Source of the DNA: Mobula hypostoma | Lineage: Eukaryota | NCBI RefSeq assembly: GCF_963921235.1 | Contig: NC_086097.1 | Coordinates: 127,722,001 to 127,786,000 of the forward strand | DNA length: 64,000 bases | Direction: 5' to 3' | Shown here: positions 3,846 to 54,835 of the stretch, piece after piece | How the letters are laid out: each line of letters opens with the position of its first letter | Numbering within the stretch: the stretch's first letter is position 1 | Position numbers and translations under genes: made by a program | The notes under the pieces: generated by a model | Told to the model about the DNA's origin: nothing | The model's input: only the letters and a program-made list of their open reading frames with translations | The model's database searches: none

Positions 3846-4214
3846 ATCATGAAATGTATTAGAGGTCCCAGTCCTGGCTAGGACAAGTGACAAGATTTTG
3901 TAAAGGGATTTCAGGGAGTTCAGTGCCAAGTTAAAGGACAGAACCTCTAGGGTTGTGATGCCCAATCTGTTACTTGCGTCATGTGGCAGTGAGGCCAGAA
4001 CCAGGCAGATTATACAGTTTAACATGTGGCTAAAAAGTTGTTGTAGGAGGGAGAGTCTAAGGTTTTTGAATAATTAGGCTCTCATCCAGGGAATGTGGGA
4101 CCTGTACAGAAGATGCAAACAACAGGAATTCTGCAGATGCTGGAAATTCAAGCAACACACATAAAAGTTGCTGGTGAACGCAGCAGGCCAGGCAGCATCT
4201 CTAGGAAGAGGTGC

Positions 4215-4250
4215 AGTCGACGTTTCAGGCCGAGACACTTCGCCAGGACT
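4215..4250 (-). ncRNA. Minimal hammerhead ribozyme, core-mutated copy
   Basis: Minus strand reads AGTC CTGGCGA AGT GTCTCGG CCT GAAA CG TC GACT, with A6>G in the CUGANGA box and a helix II mismatch. Confidence 0.75.
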
Positions 4251-4591
4251 AACTGAAGGAAGAGTGAGTAAGGGATTTGAAAGTTGGAGGGGGAGGGGGA
4301 GGGGGAGATCCAAAATGATAGGAGAAGACAGGAGGGGGAGGGATGGAGCCAAGAGCTGGACAGGTGATAGGCAAAAGGGATATGAGAGGATCATGGGACA
4401 GGAGGTCCGGGAAGAAAGACGGGGGGGGGGACCCAGAGGATGGGCAAGGGGTATATTCAGAGGGACAGAGGGAGAGAAAGGAGAGTAAGAGAAAGAATGT
4501 GTGTATAAAAATAAGTAACAGATGGGGTACGAGGGGGAGGTGGGGCATTAGCGGAAGTTAGAGAAGTCGATGTTCATGCCATCAGGTTGGA

Positions 4592-4776
4592 GGCTACCCA
4601 GACGGAATATAAGGTGTTGTTCCTCCAACCTGAGTGGCTACCCGGATGGAATATAAGGTGTTGTTCCTCCAACCTGAGTGGCTACCCAGACGGAATATAA
4701 GGTGTTGTTCCTCCAACCTGAGTGTATAAGGTGTTGTTCCTCCAACCTGAGTGTATAAGGTGTTGTTCCTCCAACC
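4592..4776. repeat. Tandem repeat of PLE ORF-end sequence (3 x 44 bp, then 29 bp and 24 bp)
   Basis: Unit ggctacccagacggaatataaggtgttgttcctccaacctgagt at 4592, 4636 and 4680, with shortened units at 4724 and 4753. Confidence 0.9.
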
Positions 4777-5123
4777 CACCAGCCTCCGGGTCCAACATAT
4801 TATTCTCCATAACTTCCGCCACCTCCAACGGGATCCCACCACTAAGCACATCTTTCCCTCCCCACCTCTCTCTGCATTCTGCAGGGATCGCTCCCTACGC
4901 AACTCCCTTGTCCATTCGTCCCCCCCATCCCTCCCCACTGATCTCCCTCCTGGCACTTATCCATGTAAGCGGAACAAGTGCTACACATGCCCTTACACTT
5001 CCTCTCTTACCACCATTCAGGGCCCCAAACAGTCCTTCCAGGTGAGGCAACACTTCACCTGTGACATACATCAAAGTTGCTGGTGAACGCAGCAGGCCAA
5101 GCAGCATCTATAGGAAGAGGCGC

Positions 5124-5159
5124 AGTCGACGTTTCAGGCCGAGACCCTTCGTCAGGACT
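5124..5159 (-). ncRNA. Minimal type I hammerhead ribozyme (intact core)
   Basis: Minus strand reads AGTC CTGACGA AGG GTCTCGG CCT GAAA CG TC^GACT. Helix I is extended here to 64 bp. Confidence 0.85.
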
Positions 5160-5873
5160 GCGCCTCTTCCTATAGATGCTGCTTGGCCTGCTGCGTTCAC
5201 CAGCAACTTTGATGTATGTTGCTTGAATTTCCAGCATCTGCAGAATTCCTGTTGTTTGCGTTTAACTTCACCTGTGAGTCGGCTGGGGTGATATACTGCG
5301 TCCGGTGCTCCCGATGTGGCCTTTTATATATTGGCGAGACCCGACGCAGACTGGGAGACCACTTTGCTGATCACCTACGCTCTGTCCACCAGAGAAAGCA
5401 GGATCTCCCAGTGGCCACACATTTTCATTCCACATCCCATTCCCATTCTGATATGTCTATCCATGGCCTCCTCTACTGTAAAGATGAAGCCACACTCAGG
5501 TTGGAGGAACAACACCTTATATTCCGTCTGGGTAGCCTCCAACCTGATGGCATGAACATCGACTTCTCTAACTTCCGCTAATGCCCCACCTCCCCCTCAT
5601 ACCCCATCTGTTACTTATTTTTATACATACATTCTTTCTCTCATTCTCCTTTTTCTCCCTCTGTCCCTCTGAATATACCCCTTGCCCATCCTCTGGGTAC
5701 CCCCCCCTCGTCTTTCTTCCCGGACCTCCTGTCCCATGATCCTCTCGTATCCCTTTTGCCAATCACTTGTCCAGCTGTTGGCTCCATCCCTCCCCCTCCT
5801 GTCTTCTCCTATCATTTTGGATCTCCCCCTCCCCCTCCAACTTTCAAATCCCTTACTCACTCTTCCTTCAGTT

Positions 5874-5909
5874 AGTCCTGACGAAGGGTCTCGGCCTGAA
5901 ACGTCGACT
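5874..5909 (+). ncRNA. Minimal type I hammerhead ribozyme (intact core)
   Basis: AGTC CTGACGA AGG GTCTCGG CCT GAAA CG TC^GACT, with predicted cleavage after 5905. Confidence 0.85.
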
Positions 5910-6038
5910 GCACCTCTTCCTAGAGATGCTGCCTGGCCTGCTGCTTTTACCAGCAACTTTTATGTGTGTTACCTGTACAGAAGAGATGGTTTGCACCTGA
6001 AATGGAAAGGAACTAATATTCTGGCAGGAAAGTTTGCT

Positions 6039-6911
6039 CAAGCAACACACATAAAAGTTGCTGGTGAACGCAGCAGGCCAGGCAGCATCTGTAGGAAGAT
6101 GTGCAGTCGACGTTTCAGGCCGAGACCCTTCGTCAGGACTAACAGAAGGAAGAGTGAGTAAGGGATTTGAAAGTTGGAGGGGGAGGGGGAGATCCAAAAT
6201 GATAGGAGAAGACAGGAGGGGGAGGGATAGAACCAAGAGCTGGACAGGTGATAGGCAAAAGGGGATACGAGAGGATCATGGGACAGGAGGTCCAGGAAGA
6301 AAGACAGGGGGGGGACCCAGAGGATGGGCAAGAGGTATATTCAGAGGGACAGAGGGAGAAAAAAGAGAGTGAGAGAAAGAATGTGTGCATAAAAATAAGT
6401 AACAGATGGGGTACGAGGGGGAGGTGGGGCATTAGCGGAAGTTAGAGAAGTCGATGTTCATGCCATCAGGTTGGAGGCTACCCAGACGGAATATAAGGTG
6501 TTGTTCCTCCAACCTGAGTGTGGCTTCATCTTTACAGTAGAGGAGGCCGTGGATACACATGTCAGAATGGGAATGGGATGTGGAATTAAAATGTGTGGCC
6601 ACTGGGAGATCCTGCTTTCTCTGGCGGACAGAGCGTAGATGTTCAGCAAAGCGGTCTCCCAGTCTGCGTCGGGTCTCGCCAATATATAAAAGGCCACATC
6701 GGGAGCACCGGACGCAGTATATCACCCCAGTAGACTCACAGGTGAAGTGTTGCCTCACCTGGAAGGACTGTTTGGGGCCCTGAATGGTGGTAAGGGAGGA
6801 AGTGTAAGGGCATGTGTAGCACTTGTTCCGCTTACACAGATAAGTGCTAGGAGGGAGATCAGTGGGGCTGGATGGGGGGGGGGACGAATGGACAAGGGAG
6901 TTGTGTAGGGT
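6039..6911 (-). mobile_element. Penelope-like element, 5'-truncated copy (GIY-YIG domain plus terminal repeat)
   Basis: ORF 6432-6758 carries VIYC..C..C.LLYIGET. Flanked by 9-bp direct repeat AAGTTTGCT (6030-6038, 6912-6920). Confidence 0.92.
6105..6140 (-). ncRNA. Minimal type I hammerhead ribozyme (intact core)
   Basis: Reverse complement of agtcgacgtttcaggccgagacccttcgtcaggact. Confidence 0.85.
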
Positions 6912-9796
6912 AAGTTTGCTAATGCTGCACGATAGGGTTTAACCTGGAGTTGTGGTGTTGTAGTGGGGGATGGGGGATGGAGTGCTGTATGTCAGACCAG
7001 TTAGTGGAGAGGCTGTGGAGACAGTTGCTGGTAAGTCTGCAGAAAAAGTCAGGAATCAAAAGGTTGAGCATGGTGTGACTAGTGTCCTGAGCTGCATATA
7101 TTTCAATGCAAGAAATATCATAGGAAATGCGGATGAGCTCATTGTATGTATCAACACCTGGAATTATGATATTGTAGCTATTGATGAGACTTGGTTGCAG
7201 GAGGGACAAGAGTGGTAGCTCAATATTCTGGGGTTCCATTGTTTTAGACGTCCCAGAGGGGGAGGTATTAAAGGAAGAGTGGTGGCATTACTAGTCAGGA
7301 AAAATGTCATCATGAAGCACTGGAGAACTTGTCTAGTTATGGGTGGAACTTGAGGAATAAGAAAGGTATGACCATGCTAATAGGGTTAGATTACAGACCA
7401 CTGAACAGTGGGAGGGATTTAGAGGAACAAATTTGTAGAAAGATTGCAGACTGTTGCAAGAAACATAAGGTTGTCATAGTAGGTGATTTTAACTTTCCAC
7501 ATATTCACTGGGACTCCCATACTGTCAAAGGAATAGATGGGATTGAGCTTGTCAAATGTGTTCAGGAAAGTTTCCTTAATCAGTACACAGAAGTGTACTG
7601 GGGAAACTTAGCATCTTGTGACTCACAATGCTATTAGTTTAAATAAATATGAAAAAAGATAGGTGTGGTCCGTGGGTTGAGATTCTAAATTGGAGAAAGG
7701 CCAATTTTGATGGTATCAGAAAGGATCTGGCAAGTGTGGATTGGGACGGGCTGCTTTCTGGCAAAGGTGCACTTGGTAAGTGGGAGGCCCTCAGAAGTGA
7801 GATTTTGAGAATACAAAATTAGCATGTGCCTGTCAGAATAAAAGGTAAAGATAACATGTGTAGGGAACCTTGGTTTTCAAGAGATATCATGGCCCTGGTT
7901 AAGAGAAAAAAGGAGGTGCCTAGCAGGTGTAGACAATTAGGAATAAATGAAGTGCTTATGGAGTATAAAAATGCAGGAGAACACTTAAGAAAGAAATCAG
8001 GATGGCTAAAAGAAGGCATTAAGTTGCTGTAGCAGACAAGGTCAAGGAGAATACTAAGGGATTCTACAGATATTTAAGAGCAAAAGGATCTCAAGGGAGA
8101 AAATTGTTGCCCTGAAAGATCAGAATGGTAATCTATGTGCAGTATCAAAACAGATGGGAGAGATCGTAAATATTTTTTATCATCTCTATTTACTCAGGAG
8201 ATGGGCACAAAGTCTATAGAAGTGAGGCACAGCAACCTCAACTTCATGGACCCTATACAGGTTACAGAGGAGGAGGTTTTGCAAACCTGGGGCAAATTAG
8301 GGTGGATAAGTCTCCAGGTTCTGACAAAGAATTCTCTTGGGCCCTGTGGGAGGCAATGCAGAAATTGCCGGAGCCCTAGCAGAGATGTTTAAATCATCCT
8401 CAGCAACAGGAGGTACCTGAGGACTGGAGAATTGCCAATGTTGTTCAGTTGTAAATGTAAACCAGGAAATTATAGGCCATAAAATCTGATATCAGTTGTG
8501 GGAAAGTTATTGTGGAAGATATTCTAAGGGACTGGATATATAAATATTTGGACAGATGTGGATTGATTAAAGATAGTCAGCATGACTTCATACGTGGTAG
8601 ATCATGCCTAACCAATCTTATAGAATTTTTTGAGGAAGTTACCAGGAAAGTGGATGAAGGCAAGACAGTAGATGTTGTCTACATGGACTTTAGCAAGGCT
8701 TTTGACAAGGTTCCAAATGGGAAGTTGGTCAATAAGGTTCTGTTGCTTGGCATTCAAGATGGGGTAGTAAATTGGATTAGACATTGGCTTTTTGGGAGAA
8801 GCAGAGATGGTTGCCTCTCTAAATGGAGTTCTGTGGCTAGTGGAGTGCCGCAGGGATTGGTGCTGGGTCTGTTGTTGTTTGTCATCTATGTCAGTGATCT
8901 GGATGATAAGGTGGCTAACTGGATCAGCAAATTTGCGGATGACACCAAGATTGGGGGTGTAGTGGAAAGTGAGGAAGGCTATCGTGGCTTGCAGAGGAAT
9001 ATGGATCAGCTGGAAAAATGAACTGAAAAATAGCAGATGGAGTTTAATGCAAATAAGTGCGAGGTGTTGCTCTTTAGTAGGACAAACCAGGGTAGGTCTT
9101 ACACAGTGAATGGTAGAGCACTGAGGAGTGTGGTAGAAGAAAGGGATCTGGGAATACAGATTGCATTATTCATTGAGAGTGGCCTCATAGGTAGATCGTG
9201 TCTTAAAGAAAGCTTTTGGCACATTGGCCTTAAATCAATGTATTGAGGTCAGGAGATGGGATGTTATGTTGAATTTGTATTAGACATTGGTGAGGACTTG
9301 GAGTATTATTTGCAGTTTTGGTCACCTACCCGCAGGAAAGATGTAAATAAGTTTGAAAGAGTACAGAGAAAACTTACAAAGATGTTGCCGGGTCTGGAGG
9401 ACCTGAGTTATAAGGAAAGATTGAATAGGTTAGGACTTTATTCCTTAGAATATAGAAGATTGAAAGCAGATTTAATAGAGATATACAAAATTCTGAGGGT
9501 TATAGATAGGTTAAATACAAGCAGACTTTTTCCACTGAGGTTGGGTGGGACTACAATCAGAGGTTATGGGTTAAGGGTGAAAGATGAAATATTTAAGGGG
9601 AACATGAGGGGAAACTCCTTCACTCAGAGGGTTGTGAGAGTGTGGAATGAGCTGTCAGTATAAGTGGTGCATACAAGCTCAATTTTTTTTTGTAATTTAT
9701 TTTTTATTGAAGTTCATCATCAAACAAACATTTCCATAAGATGTATTTCAGAAACTGTACATATATATCATATAGTCATATTTGTCACAAATAAGC

Positions 9797-28837: not shown

Positions 28838-29612
28838 TGAACCCTGGAGCACATCCTCAGCGGCTGTGCAAGGGCACTTGGTGAGGGACGGTACAGGTGG
28901 AGGCATGATCAGGTCCTGAAGACCATCGCTGAAGCCGTCAGCGCAGGAGTTGAGTGGGCGAAGCGGTCCCGACCCTCCAAGCAGACCATTGCCTTTGTCA
29001 GAGCTGGGGAGCAGCCAATACCTGCCAAAAGAACATCTGCAGGCATTCTGACCTCTGCAAGGGACTGGCAACTGTTGGTGGACCTCAAAGGGCAGCTGAA
29101 GTTCCCCAACCATATCGCAGCCACCACCCTGCGACCAGACATTGTCCTTGTGTCTGAGTCGACTAAGCAAGTGGTGCTGCTGGAGCTGACAGTCCCATGG
29201 GAAGATAGCTTGGAAGAGGCCAATGAAAGGAAGCTCTCCAAGTACGTAGGACTGGTCAGCAACTGTCAGCAGGCTGGATGGACAGCGAGGTGACTCCCTG
29301 TGGAGGTTGGTTGTAGGGGATTCGTAGCCCGTTCTTTAGTTAGAGCCTTCAGCATTTTGGGCATCGAGGGAGAGAGGAAGAGGAGAGCCATCCGCAGTAC
29401 CACCGATGCGGCAGAGAGGGCCTCAAGATGGCTGTGGCTCAAAAGAGGGGAGCCATGGAGTCATAAGTAGCTAGCCATCTGGACACAAGCTGGGGTCTGA
29501 TCAGCCCCGGCTGGGTCACCTGGAGGAGGTTGTATGATGTTGAAAGATCCGAAACACCCGATGATTCCAGGAACATCACTGAAGATGTGTCCAGAAGCAT
29601 CAATAGATGTAT
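28838..29612 (+). mobile_element. 5'-truncated RLE (restriction-like endonuclease) non-LTR retrotransposon, Hero-like
   Basis: A single frame reads TLEHILSGC..GRYRWRHDQVL..RPDIVLVS..LLELTVPWE..ERKLSKY..PVEVGCRGF..ERASRWLW. One premature TGA at 29291; terminal TAG at 29468-29470. Confidence 0.85.
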
Positions 29613-30837: not shown

Positions 30838-31035
30838 GAAACTCAGCAGGCCGGGCATCATCGATGGAAAAGAGCAAACAATCAATGTTTTGGGTGGAGG
30901 ACCTGATGAAGGGTCTCGGCCTGAGATGTCAACTGTTTACTCTTTTCCATAAAGCATGCCTAGACTGATGAGTTCCTCCAGCAATTCATGTGTGTTGCTT
31001 TGGAACTCCAGCATCTGCAGATTTTCTTGTGTCTC
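30838..31035. mobile_element. Short fold-back PLE terminal-repeat element with decayed hammerhead
   Basis: A minus-strand tail half is joined to plus-strand CTGATGA AGG GTCTCGG CCT GAGA TGTC AACT and its tail. Confidence 0.75.
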
Positions 31036-46778: not shown

Positions 46779-47013
46779 CCTAGAATGAAAAGCCTCATCC
46801 TGAGAGCAGATGCGGCGGAGACGGAGGAATTGCGAGAAGGGGATGGCATTTTTGCAAGAGACAGGGTGAGAAGAGGAATAGTCCAGATAGCTGTGAGAGT
46901 CAGTAGGCTTATAGTAGACAACAGGAATTCTGCAGATGCTGGAAATTCAAGCAACATACATCAAAGTTGCTGGTGAACGCAGCAGGCCAAGCAGCATCTA
47001 TAGGAAGAGGCGC

Positions 47014-47049
47014 AGTCGACGTTTCAGGCCGAGACCCTTCGTCAGGACT
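47014..47049 (-). ncRNA. Minimal type I hammerhead ribozyme (intact core)
   Basis: Same 36-nt motif as 45759-45794. Confidence 0.85.
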
Positions 47050-51619: not shown

Positions 51620-52320
51620 TTCTATTGATGCAATTATGAAGAAGGCGGGCCAGTGGCTATATTACATTCTGAGTTTGAGGCAATGTGGTATGTTACCAAA
51701 GACACTAGCAAATTTCTACAGATGCTCTGTAGAGAGCTTTCTGACTGGTTGTATCACCGTTTGGTATGGAGACTCCAATGCACAGGATAGAAAAAGCTGC
51801 AGAATATTGCAGACTCACCCGGCTCCATGATGAGCACTAGCCTCCCCACCATCAAAGATTTCTTCAAAAGCTGCCATCTATCATGAAAGACACCCACCAT
51901 CCAGGCCATATCTTCTTCTCATTACTACCATCAGGCAAGAGGTACAGAAGCCTGGAGACTTGCATTCAATGTTTTAGAAATAGCTTCTTCCCCTCCAACA
52001 TCAGACTTCTGAATGGTCCATGAATACTATTCTGCTATCTTTCTGCATTATTTATATTTTAAATATTTCTTATCGTGACTTACTGTACAGTCACTTTTTA
52101 AATGTATTGCATTGTATTGCTGCCACAGAACATTTTATGACATATGTCAGTGATAACACATCTAAACACGAGGAAGTCTGCAGATGCTGGAAATCCAAAG
52201 CAACACACACAAAATGCTGGAGGAGCACAACAGGGCCAGGCAGCATCTATGGAAATGAATAAACAGTCGATGTTTCAAGCCGAGAATCTTCTTCAGGACT
52301 CTAATACATCTAATTCTGAT
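51620..52320 (+). mobile_element. Rex1/Babar-type LINE 3' end
   Basis: KKAGQWLYYILSLRQCGMLPKTLANFYRCSVESFLTGCITVWYG. Confidence 0.8.
52166..52301 (-). mobile_element. Mini PLE insertion consisting only of a hammerhead and tail
   Basis: Hammerhead remnant at 52265-52300, flanked by taacacatctaa / taatacatctaa. Confidence 0.75.
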
Positions 52321-54179: not shown

Positions 54180-54835
54180 CACACTTTGATCTCACACCAG
54201 ATTAACGTGACAATATTTCATTAGGGACAGACCTCCAAACAGTCTCACACTACAAATCACATTCACTTACCCAGAAGCACTGGTTCTTACATTGAACAAC
54301 CTTCCTTTCTACTACATTCACAAGCCTATTAACTGTCCTGGTTTCTGTCCTCTGTCTTTATTCCTCCCCTGCTTTTCCAGTAGGATGATGGTTGTGTGGA
54401 TTCTGATGCCTTCATTTGTACAGAACTTGGAAATTTCATCAATCTTTACTACTAATTTCTATCCTACTCTCTCTTCAATTTTGTAACTCCACCTCAGGAG
54501 ATAGGCAGGTAACCAATATCCATGATAACCCCATTATATGTGGACTAAACCTCCCTCCACCCTGCTTTCTGCAAGGAACCTTCCATTATCTGTTTCTCCA
54601 GTTCCATATCTGCTCTGTTGACAGACTCTCCACATTAGGGCTTCCAAAGTGTAAACACAAGAGATTCTGCAGATGCTGGAAATGCAGAGTAACACACTAA
54701 ACAGTAAACAAATAAACAAAAGGTAGTTCTGATGAAGGTCTCGGCCTGAAACATCTACTATTTACTCTTTTCCATAGATGCTGTCTGGCCTGATGAGTTC
54801 CTCAGCACTGTGTGCATGTGCGTGCGTGCGTTGCC
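54180..54835 (+). mobile_element. Old PLE RT remnant followed by a fold-back PLE terminal-repeat piece (about 54652-54835)
   Basis: TNFYPTL and SGDRQVTNIH are homologous to PLE RT. Hammerhead TAGTT CTGATGA AGG TCTCGG CCT GAAA CA TC TACTA at 54724-54760. Confidence 0.65.

Follow-up and report, generated by a model that had tools for sequence, protein, structure and literature searches.

A hammerhead-bearing hairpin in Mobula hypostoma is a two-armed Penelope-like insertion with its junction at helix I

Introduction

A DNA record of cleavage by the hammerhead ribozyme of Penelope-like elements (PLEs) would be valuable. In the 64,000-nt stretch of the Mobula hypostoma genome analysed here (the window), a perfect hairpin switches strand at the predicted cut GTC^GACT of such a ribozyme. 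Is it the fossil of a cleaved RNA, as an earlier note on this DNA had proposed? If so, counting the junctions of its class would measure how active the ribozyme is in vivo. This class is the most tempting candidate for a cleavage record, yet our controls find it confounded: the geometry of the ribozyme itself creates an inverted repeat where the cut falls, and the opposite strand of this repeat carries the main cDNA stop of the family. Throughout, element positions count from the predicted cut, with +1 for the base immediately on its 3' side.

Results

The hairpin is part of a larger two-armed insertion

The two arms of the hairpin, 5064-5127 and 5156-5219, are 64 nt each and 100% reverse-complementary in alignment, just as the earlier note had it, with a mismatch directly outside and another directly inside. 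The fold has a z-score of -21.6 against 200 shuffles. The 28-nt spacer indeed reads, on the minus strand, as a minimal hammerhead core, and the plus-strand segment starts with GACTGCGCC, also as claimed. Arms and core were thus correctly described, but the surrounding insertion was overlooked: the hairpin is contained in a two-armed, head-to-head unit of 200-201 bp (5064/5065-5264).

The unit is enclosed by a target site duplication (TSD) of 12-13 bp, whose left copy at 5052-5064 pairs with the right copy at 5265-5277, both on the plus strand. Base A5064 is common to the left TSD and the adjacent arm, and is readable as part of either. In a sister copy, at about 6736-6748, the target site is single and holds no insertion: an empty site.

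Arm A (5064-5127, minus strand) corresponds to element positions +64 to +1. Its 3' end points outward, it has no tail and its sequence agrees with the young copy at 46954-47049 at 100% identity. The minimal hammerhead core (5128-5155, minus strand; -28 to -1) is continuous with it over the cut site. Arm B (5156-5219, plus strand) covers +1 to +64 and it alone extends into a tail of 45 nt (5220-5264, plus strand; +65 to +109). The two meet at a 4-nt microhomology, GACT/AGTC (5156-5159), which represents the two strands of helix I; the earlier note's statement that the join uses this complement is borne out here. The four bases are assignable equally to arm A (-29 to -32) or to arm B (+1 to +4), and the switch point can be resolved no finer than this common GACT.

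Altogether, the insertion is a real, two-armed retrotransposition product of a very abundant Penelope-like retroelement. It is recent-looking and its architecture is of a known kind; the product itself is dead.

The host copy belongs to the same family

The target of the insertion is another copy of the same Penelope-like family. This host copy (4777-5970, plus strand) is 5'-truncated and comprises a Cys-rich linker, part of the GIY-YIG endonuclease and the 3' end, which carries a hammerhead at about 5874-5909. The insertion breaks it in the endonuclease-coding part, just upstream of the GIY-YIG motif. By sequence comparison, the inverted, tail-bearing arm of the host insertion occupies 4114-4776 on the minus strand. 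The host insertion (4114-5970) is itself head-to-head, with its own 14-bp TSD (4100-4113 and 5971-5984). The same arrangement with an inverted 5'-truncated copy recurs in 118 pairs among the fetched loci. Around the inversion junction of the host insertion, 4592-4783, a single segment is present as 29-44-bp tandem re-copies, which suggests repeated template slips.

GIY-YIG endonuclease (PF01541) was matched on the sister copy at 6432-6938 (96% identity) with an E-value of 6e-05, above the cut-off. No Pfam match, to a reverse transcriptase (RT) of telomerase-like type or otherwise, was obtained in the one upstream piece scanned, the window having truncated C-terminal pieces only. ORF translations of the family contain the linker motif CX4CxxC. 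A CX2-5CxxC linker preceding the endonuclease is described for the Neptune/Nematis clade of PLEs (PMC8557442); as far as its sequence tells, the Cys-rich linker points to an element of Neptune or Nematis type, not Poseidon.

Older relatives of the hammerhead-bearing 3' end, 75-88% identical, lie elsewhere in the window at 19614-19706, 21298-21392, 30902-31027, 52164-52300 and 54653-54807. ORF fragments at 8476-9021 and 28841-29293 resemble what we take to be a CR1-type LINE RT and a restriction-like-endonuclease LINE end.

The trapped hammerhead is predicted to be inactive as a monomer

The core at 5128-5155 has the CUGANGA and GAAA boxes, the NUH triplet and helices I and II of a minimal type I hammerhead (min-HHR). 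Its helix III, GAAACGUC, is a loop-less palindrome with 0 nt between C15.2 and G16.2. It shares with the min-HHR of metazoan PLEs (PMC4209133) the conserved boxes, the short helices I and II and a loop-less palindromic helix III for which a dimer should be required. In contrast to them, helix I is accidentally lengthened here to 64 bp by the inversion, and the predicted fold is inactive.

The hallmarks of a canonical monomeric hammerhead, namely a closed helix III, a core left free in the monomer and an Rfam match, are all absent from this RNA: an Rfam scan of the 64-kb window gave no match at gathering scores, and the 156-nt RNA is predicted to fold with its core GACG paired to CGUC, the stretch that contains the triplet (55% of the ensemble). 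The predicted dimer, too, differs from the active double-hammerhead fold. On these models, self-cleavage of the 156-nt RNA as a monomer appears unlikely, since a 64-bp helix I cannot repair a loop-less helix III. In the experiments excerpted from PMC4209133, single min-HHR motifs showed no cleavage in vitro and dimers showed low cleavage.

The helix I junction recurs in the genome

The exact 24-nt junction has 54 occurrences in the window's own genome (3.48 Gb), in which 41,400 exact copies run through the cut site. We took the first 30 of these 54 loci, one of them being the window locus. All but one (29/30) have their own TSD of 12-18 bp, with at most one mismatch, and their flanks have only short diverged repeats in common. 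A tail is found on exactly one arm in 30/30 loci, on the core arm in 17 and on the +1 arm in 13, and the junction is carried by several subfamilies. Given 54 copies, separate TSDs and several subfamilies, the junction formed repeatedly and is no artefact; the alternatives of artefact and chance that the earlier note had named for the hairpin can be dismissed on the 54 copies and the 29 TSDs.

Two other origins were considered for the class as a whole. Amplification of one founder hairpin is rejected by the tail occurring on either arm and by the several subfamilies. A MITE or fold-back DNA transposon is rejected as well: arm ends vary, the tail changes arm (17 versus 13) and, again, more than one subfamily is involved.

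Both arms are of the same +6/+18 type in 29/35 junction loci, for 8 expected at random (5 loci with short arms or indels were skipped), an agreement that a single active source locus would equally give. The difference between arms is lower, a value confounded by the choice of young copies. At one locus, L014, the arms come from two subfamilies and differ from +7 on. Joining in trans therefore happens, while cis and trans are not separable in general. Among the fetched loci, arm ends cluster near +64 and +105.

Breakpoints at the cut site

We counted as a break every copy that matches the element down to a given position and then differs at the next three bases. Genome-wide there are 394 breaks at +1, against 185 at +5, 126 at +3, 127 at +2 and 97 at -2. 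The enrichment at GTC^GACT for which the earlier note proposed to look is thus present at this level, +1 exceeding its four neighbours 2-4 times. The three-base filter hides some recurrent junctions, and the +5 count excludes the 201 junctions at +5/+25 described below. Some breaks scored at -2 are probably +1 breaks followed by AA, possibly 4 of the 11 host rows at this position. A complementary search at +1 returned 142 more rows; judged by eye on the 100 listed, roughly one in four is an in-register point mutant.

The first 70 of the 394 rows at +1 divide into 53 inversions, 8 host-joined breaks, 6 small indels and 3 same-orientation jumps. Eight of the inversions are exact helix I junctions with 4-nt microhomology, nine are joined at -15 via GTC, and many of the others have their partner between -24 and -33. 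The +1 excess is found mostly in inversions, many with GTC microhomology. Leaving out the helix I and GTC/-15 junctions, an excess of about 2x persists among low-microhomology inversions, in a rough count by eye.

Simple truncations constitute the class without self-pairing. Rows that looked host-joined by eye were fetched and tested for a TSD, with a chance rate of 4/300. Truncations flanked by a TSD were found in 3/100 rows at +1, 8/96 at +2 (4 host-like rows being left out), 10/100 at +3, 2/30 at +5 and 3/30 at -2. Scaled to the genome, this gives about 12 at +1 (CI 2.5-34; 16 if one 7-nt TSD is accepted), 11 at +2, 13 at +3, 12 at +5 and 10 at -2. In this class the enrichment anticipated by the earlier note does not appear: with small samples, there is no +1 peak among TSD-flanked simple truncations (about 12 versus 10-13), the +1 sample consisting of 3 events and still admitting a 2-3x peak. 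When all host-joined breaks are scaled, with or without a TSD, +1 has about 47 versus about 33, 19, 31 and 36 at the controls (1.3-2.5x).

At L233, L248, L249 and further rows a double switch recurs, from +1 to about -26 along the GTC repeat and then a fold-back, with a short inverted piece of helix I.

The main stop of the family is at -32

Position -32, where helix I ends on its far side, has 1,942 breaks, for 394 at +1 under the same design; the -32 search pattern leaves out the helix I junction itself. A sample of 30 loci contains 16 inversions with diverse partners, 12 host-joined copies, of which 7 have a TSD and 5 lack one, and 2 same-orientation joins. Scaled to the genome, TSD-flanked run-offs number about 453 at -32 (7/30; CI 193-821) versus about 12 at +1 (3/100). 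Ends at -32 therefore exceed those at +1 in the TSD-flanked class about 40-fold, the CIs allowing about 6-fold at least. The stretch from -23 to -48 holds 20,326 breaks versus 5,402 for -11 to +13, a rough comparison made with different anchors. The family's main cDNA stop is -32.

A cDNA ending at -32 has a GACT end, and by the geometry of helix I its nearest complement is the AGTC at +1 to +4. An extra G, the signature of a cap, shows no clear excess by eye in 100 rows at -32. The sequence around the stop, TTAGTCC, fits what we take to be the initiator consensus. Many -32 breaks (for example L401, L404, L409, L414, L425 and L428) continue with TCGT, which briefly re-copies the bases immediately preceding the stop.

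Just 5' of helix I in the host copy, 5853-5876 contains a branch-point-like TACTCAC, a pyrimidine tract and CAG/TAG. Rows of an older subfamily with the +1 break carry TACTAAC instead of TACTCAC upstream of helix I. By consensus, we take this stretch to be splice-acceptor-like. In the D. virilis Penelope element, an intron is described that runs up to the 5' end of helix I (PMC4209133).

A stem without a ribozyme site yields more junctions

Downstream of the cut site, positions +5 to +24 form a plain 8-bp stem-loop without a ribozyme site. Fold-back junctions at the base of this stem (+5/+25) have 201 matches genome-wide; the helix I junction with a comparable anchor has about 83, as estimated by eye from 15/100 rows of the 394 and 17/100 of the 142. 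A TSD is present in 23/30 of the +5/+25 loci (L341-L370), and 29/30 of them stem from the subfamily in which the stem pairs best, on a background of 17/54 unselected copies. Pairing alone thus yields recurrent fold-back junctions.

Discussion

How the arms were joined

The arms were probably joined via the 4-nt helix I complement, likely after a stop at -32 and pairing of GACT with AGTC; a ribozyme cut is unneeded. The endonuclease would make a staggered cut about 13 bp apart, of which the TSD is the visible trace. Both target ends would then prime reverse transcription, with starts at about +64 and +105, where the arms are seen to end. Such dual priming, suggested by in vitro work on the Anolis element, would fit both the single tail per insertion and the position of the arm ends. 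An uncleaved RNA serves as template for one cDNA, which extends past the cut site and the core, as arm A displays, and ends at the -32 hot spot, where either the 5' end of the RNA or a fall-off of the RT may be the cause. Its GACT end could pair with AGTC, on its own strand or on the partner cDNA, and prime second-strand synthesis. Against this account count the excess of breaks at +1 over its four neighbours, including what persists of it in low-microhomology inversions and in all host-joined breaks, and the small TSD-flanked sample at +1. Moreover, the junction sequence is the same under a -32 stop and under cleavage; the helix I hairpin of the cDNA has just 4 bp, and another DNA fold is predicted to have the lowest energy. 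Priming at the tail end of arm B followed by a plain fold-back of that cDNA was rejected as insufficient alone here, because the core would then lie in the opposite orientation.

The earlier note saw in the locus a DNA record of in vivo cleavage. Its retrotransposition origin, the join through helix I and the +1 enrichment hold, whereas the cleavage reading has weak support: arm A is uncut, TSD-flanked truncations have no peak and the main stop is at -32. A single cleaved RNA followed by re-priming is rejected by arm A: it bears the core and passes uninterrupted through GTC^GACT, which takes at least one uncleaved template. With two templates, the RT would have run off a self-cleaved RNA at +1 and the AGTC end of its cDNA would have re-primed on the GACT of a second cDNA, from an uncleaved RNA. 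We regard this as unlikely for the junction, even though L014 makes clear that two RNAs are joinable there, the hammerhead of PAc, the Poseidon element of Anolis carolinensis, cleaves with its protein present (PMC11167929), and +1 breaks exceed their neighbours overall, among low-microhomology inversions in a rough recount, and in the host-joined class. The same excess is missing from TSD-flanked simple truncations, in which run-offs at -32 dominate; tens of thousands of exact copies run through the cut site, the non-ribozyme stem is the more productive one, and in the part of PMC11167929 that treats Anolis RNA-seq, reads have no starts or ends at the site. The position of the join at the cut is weak evidence of cleavage, since helix I, which makes both copied ends complementary there, is likely what places it.

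It is likewise doubtful that hammerhead cleavage in vivo left a genomic fossil in two-armed insertions, as part of their secondary hot spot at +1. A dimeric Penelope RT would then carry one cut and one uncut RNA, and the cDNA of the cut one would be captured via helix I, a scheme that we put forward as tentatively as the fossil itself.

Microhomology-mediated joining by the host is decidedly improbable as an alternative. Two longer cDNAs would anneal through the inverted repeat of 4 nt, with trimming of the flaps, RT stops being irrelevant. Junctions do track local inverted microhomology (GTC at +1/-15, TGC at +5/+25, the GGCGCC palindrome), and many have small insertions, as is typical for end joining. 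However, the -32 pile-up also occurs in host-joined, TSD-flanked copies without an inverted partner (7/30), which argues for a true stop exactly at the end of arm A. Finally, it is very unlikely that this locus is an artefact of assembly or of a chimeric read, or that it was rearranged locally at a later time: the arms are perfect, the region is repeat-rich and contigs of three runs match it as 54-60-nt pieces, none spanning, but the TSD is clean, the site is empty in sister copies and the junction exists at 54 places with diverged arms.

Comparison with known systems

In the twin priming of LINE-1, which generates 5' inversions, both target ends prime cDNA and the cDNAs join at short complementary ends inside the TSD; the RNA segments represented in the two parts usually adjoin. 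In the present insertion, by contrast, the arms overlap by 64 nt, so two RNAs, re-copying of one RNA or a fold-back are needed.

Head-to-head insertions of endonuclease-bearing (EN+) PLEs, with an inverted pLTR, a one-sided tail of 30-40 bp and a TSD, are described in PMC8557442 and, for Pen2a_Av, in PMC3846280. The present insertion is like them in that an inverted 5'-truncated copy stands beside a direct one, with 3' ends outward, a tail at one end, a TSD round the unit and, where the two copies join, a palindrome or a short inverted repeat. It differs from those described in its size of about 200 bp, the lack of coding sequence, the 45-nt tail, and a junction that is the hammerhead helix I and recurs at at least 54 loci. 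For Penelope elements, self-priming has been put forward at palindromic junctions (PMC3846280). In the passages of the literature covered, we found no account of a breakpoint map relative to the hammerhead or of helix I junctions.

PAc nicks and extends both target strands, and two RT start sites bound its tail (PMC11167929). A PAc template with a dead hammerhead inserts equally well in vitro, and a dimer is predicted (PMC11167929). The element studied here is similar in that two RT start sites probably lie downstream of its hammerhead, both target strands would be extended and an uncleaved RNA would be the main template; it is dissimilar in that the evidence is genomic only and that the linker suggests Neptune/Nematis type instead of Poseidon. 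What is gained is a rough breakpoint map, with a strong stop at -32, fold-backs at RNA stems and one tail per insertion, which fits dual priming. The portion of an animal retrozyme preprint covered here (10.64898/2026.07.22.740005) has no bearing on the junction.

Two loci, L051 and L057, are perfect hairpins centred on the GTCGAC palindrome of the cut site; they might stem from blunt joining of two cleaved ends, or from a join through the 6-nt palindrome.
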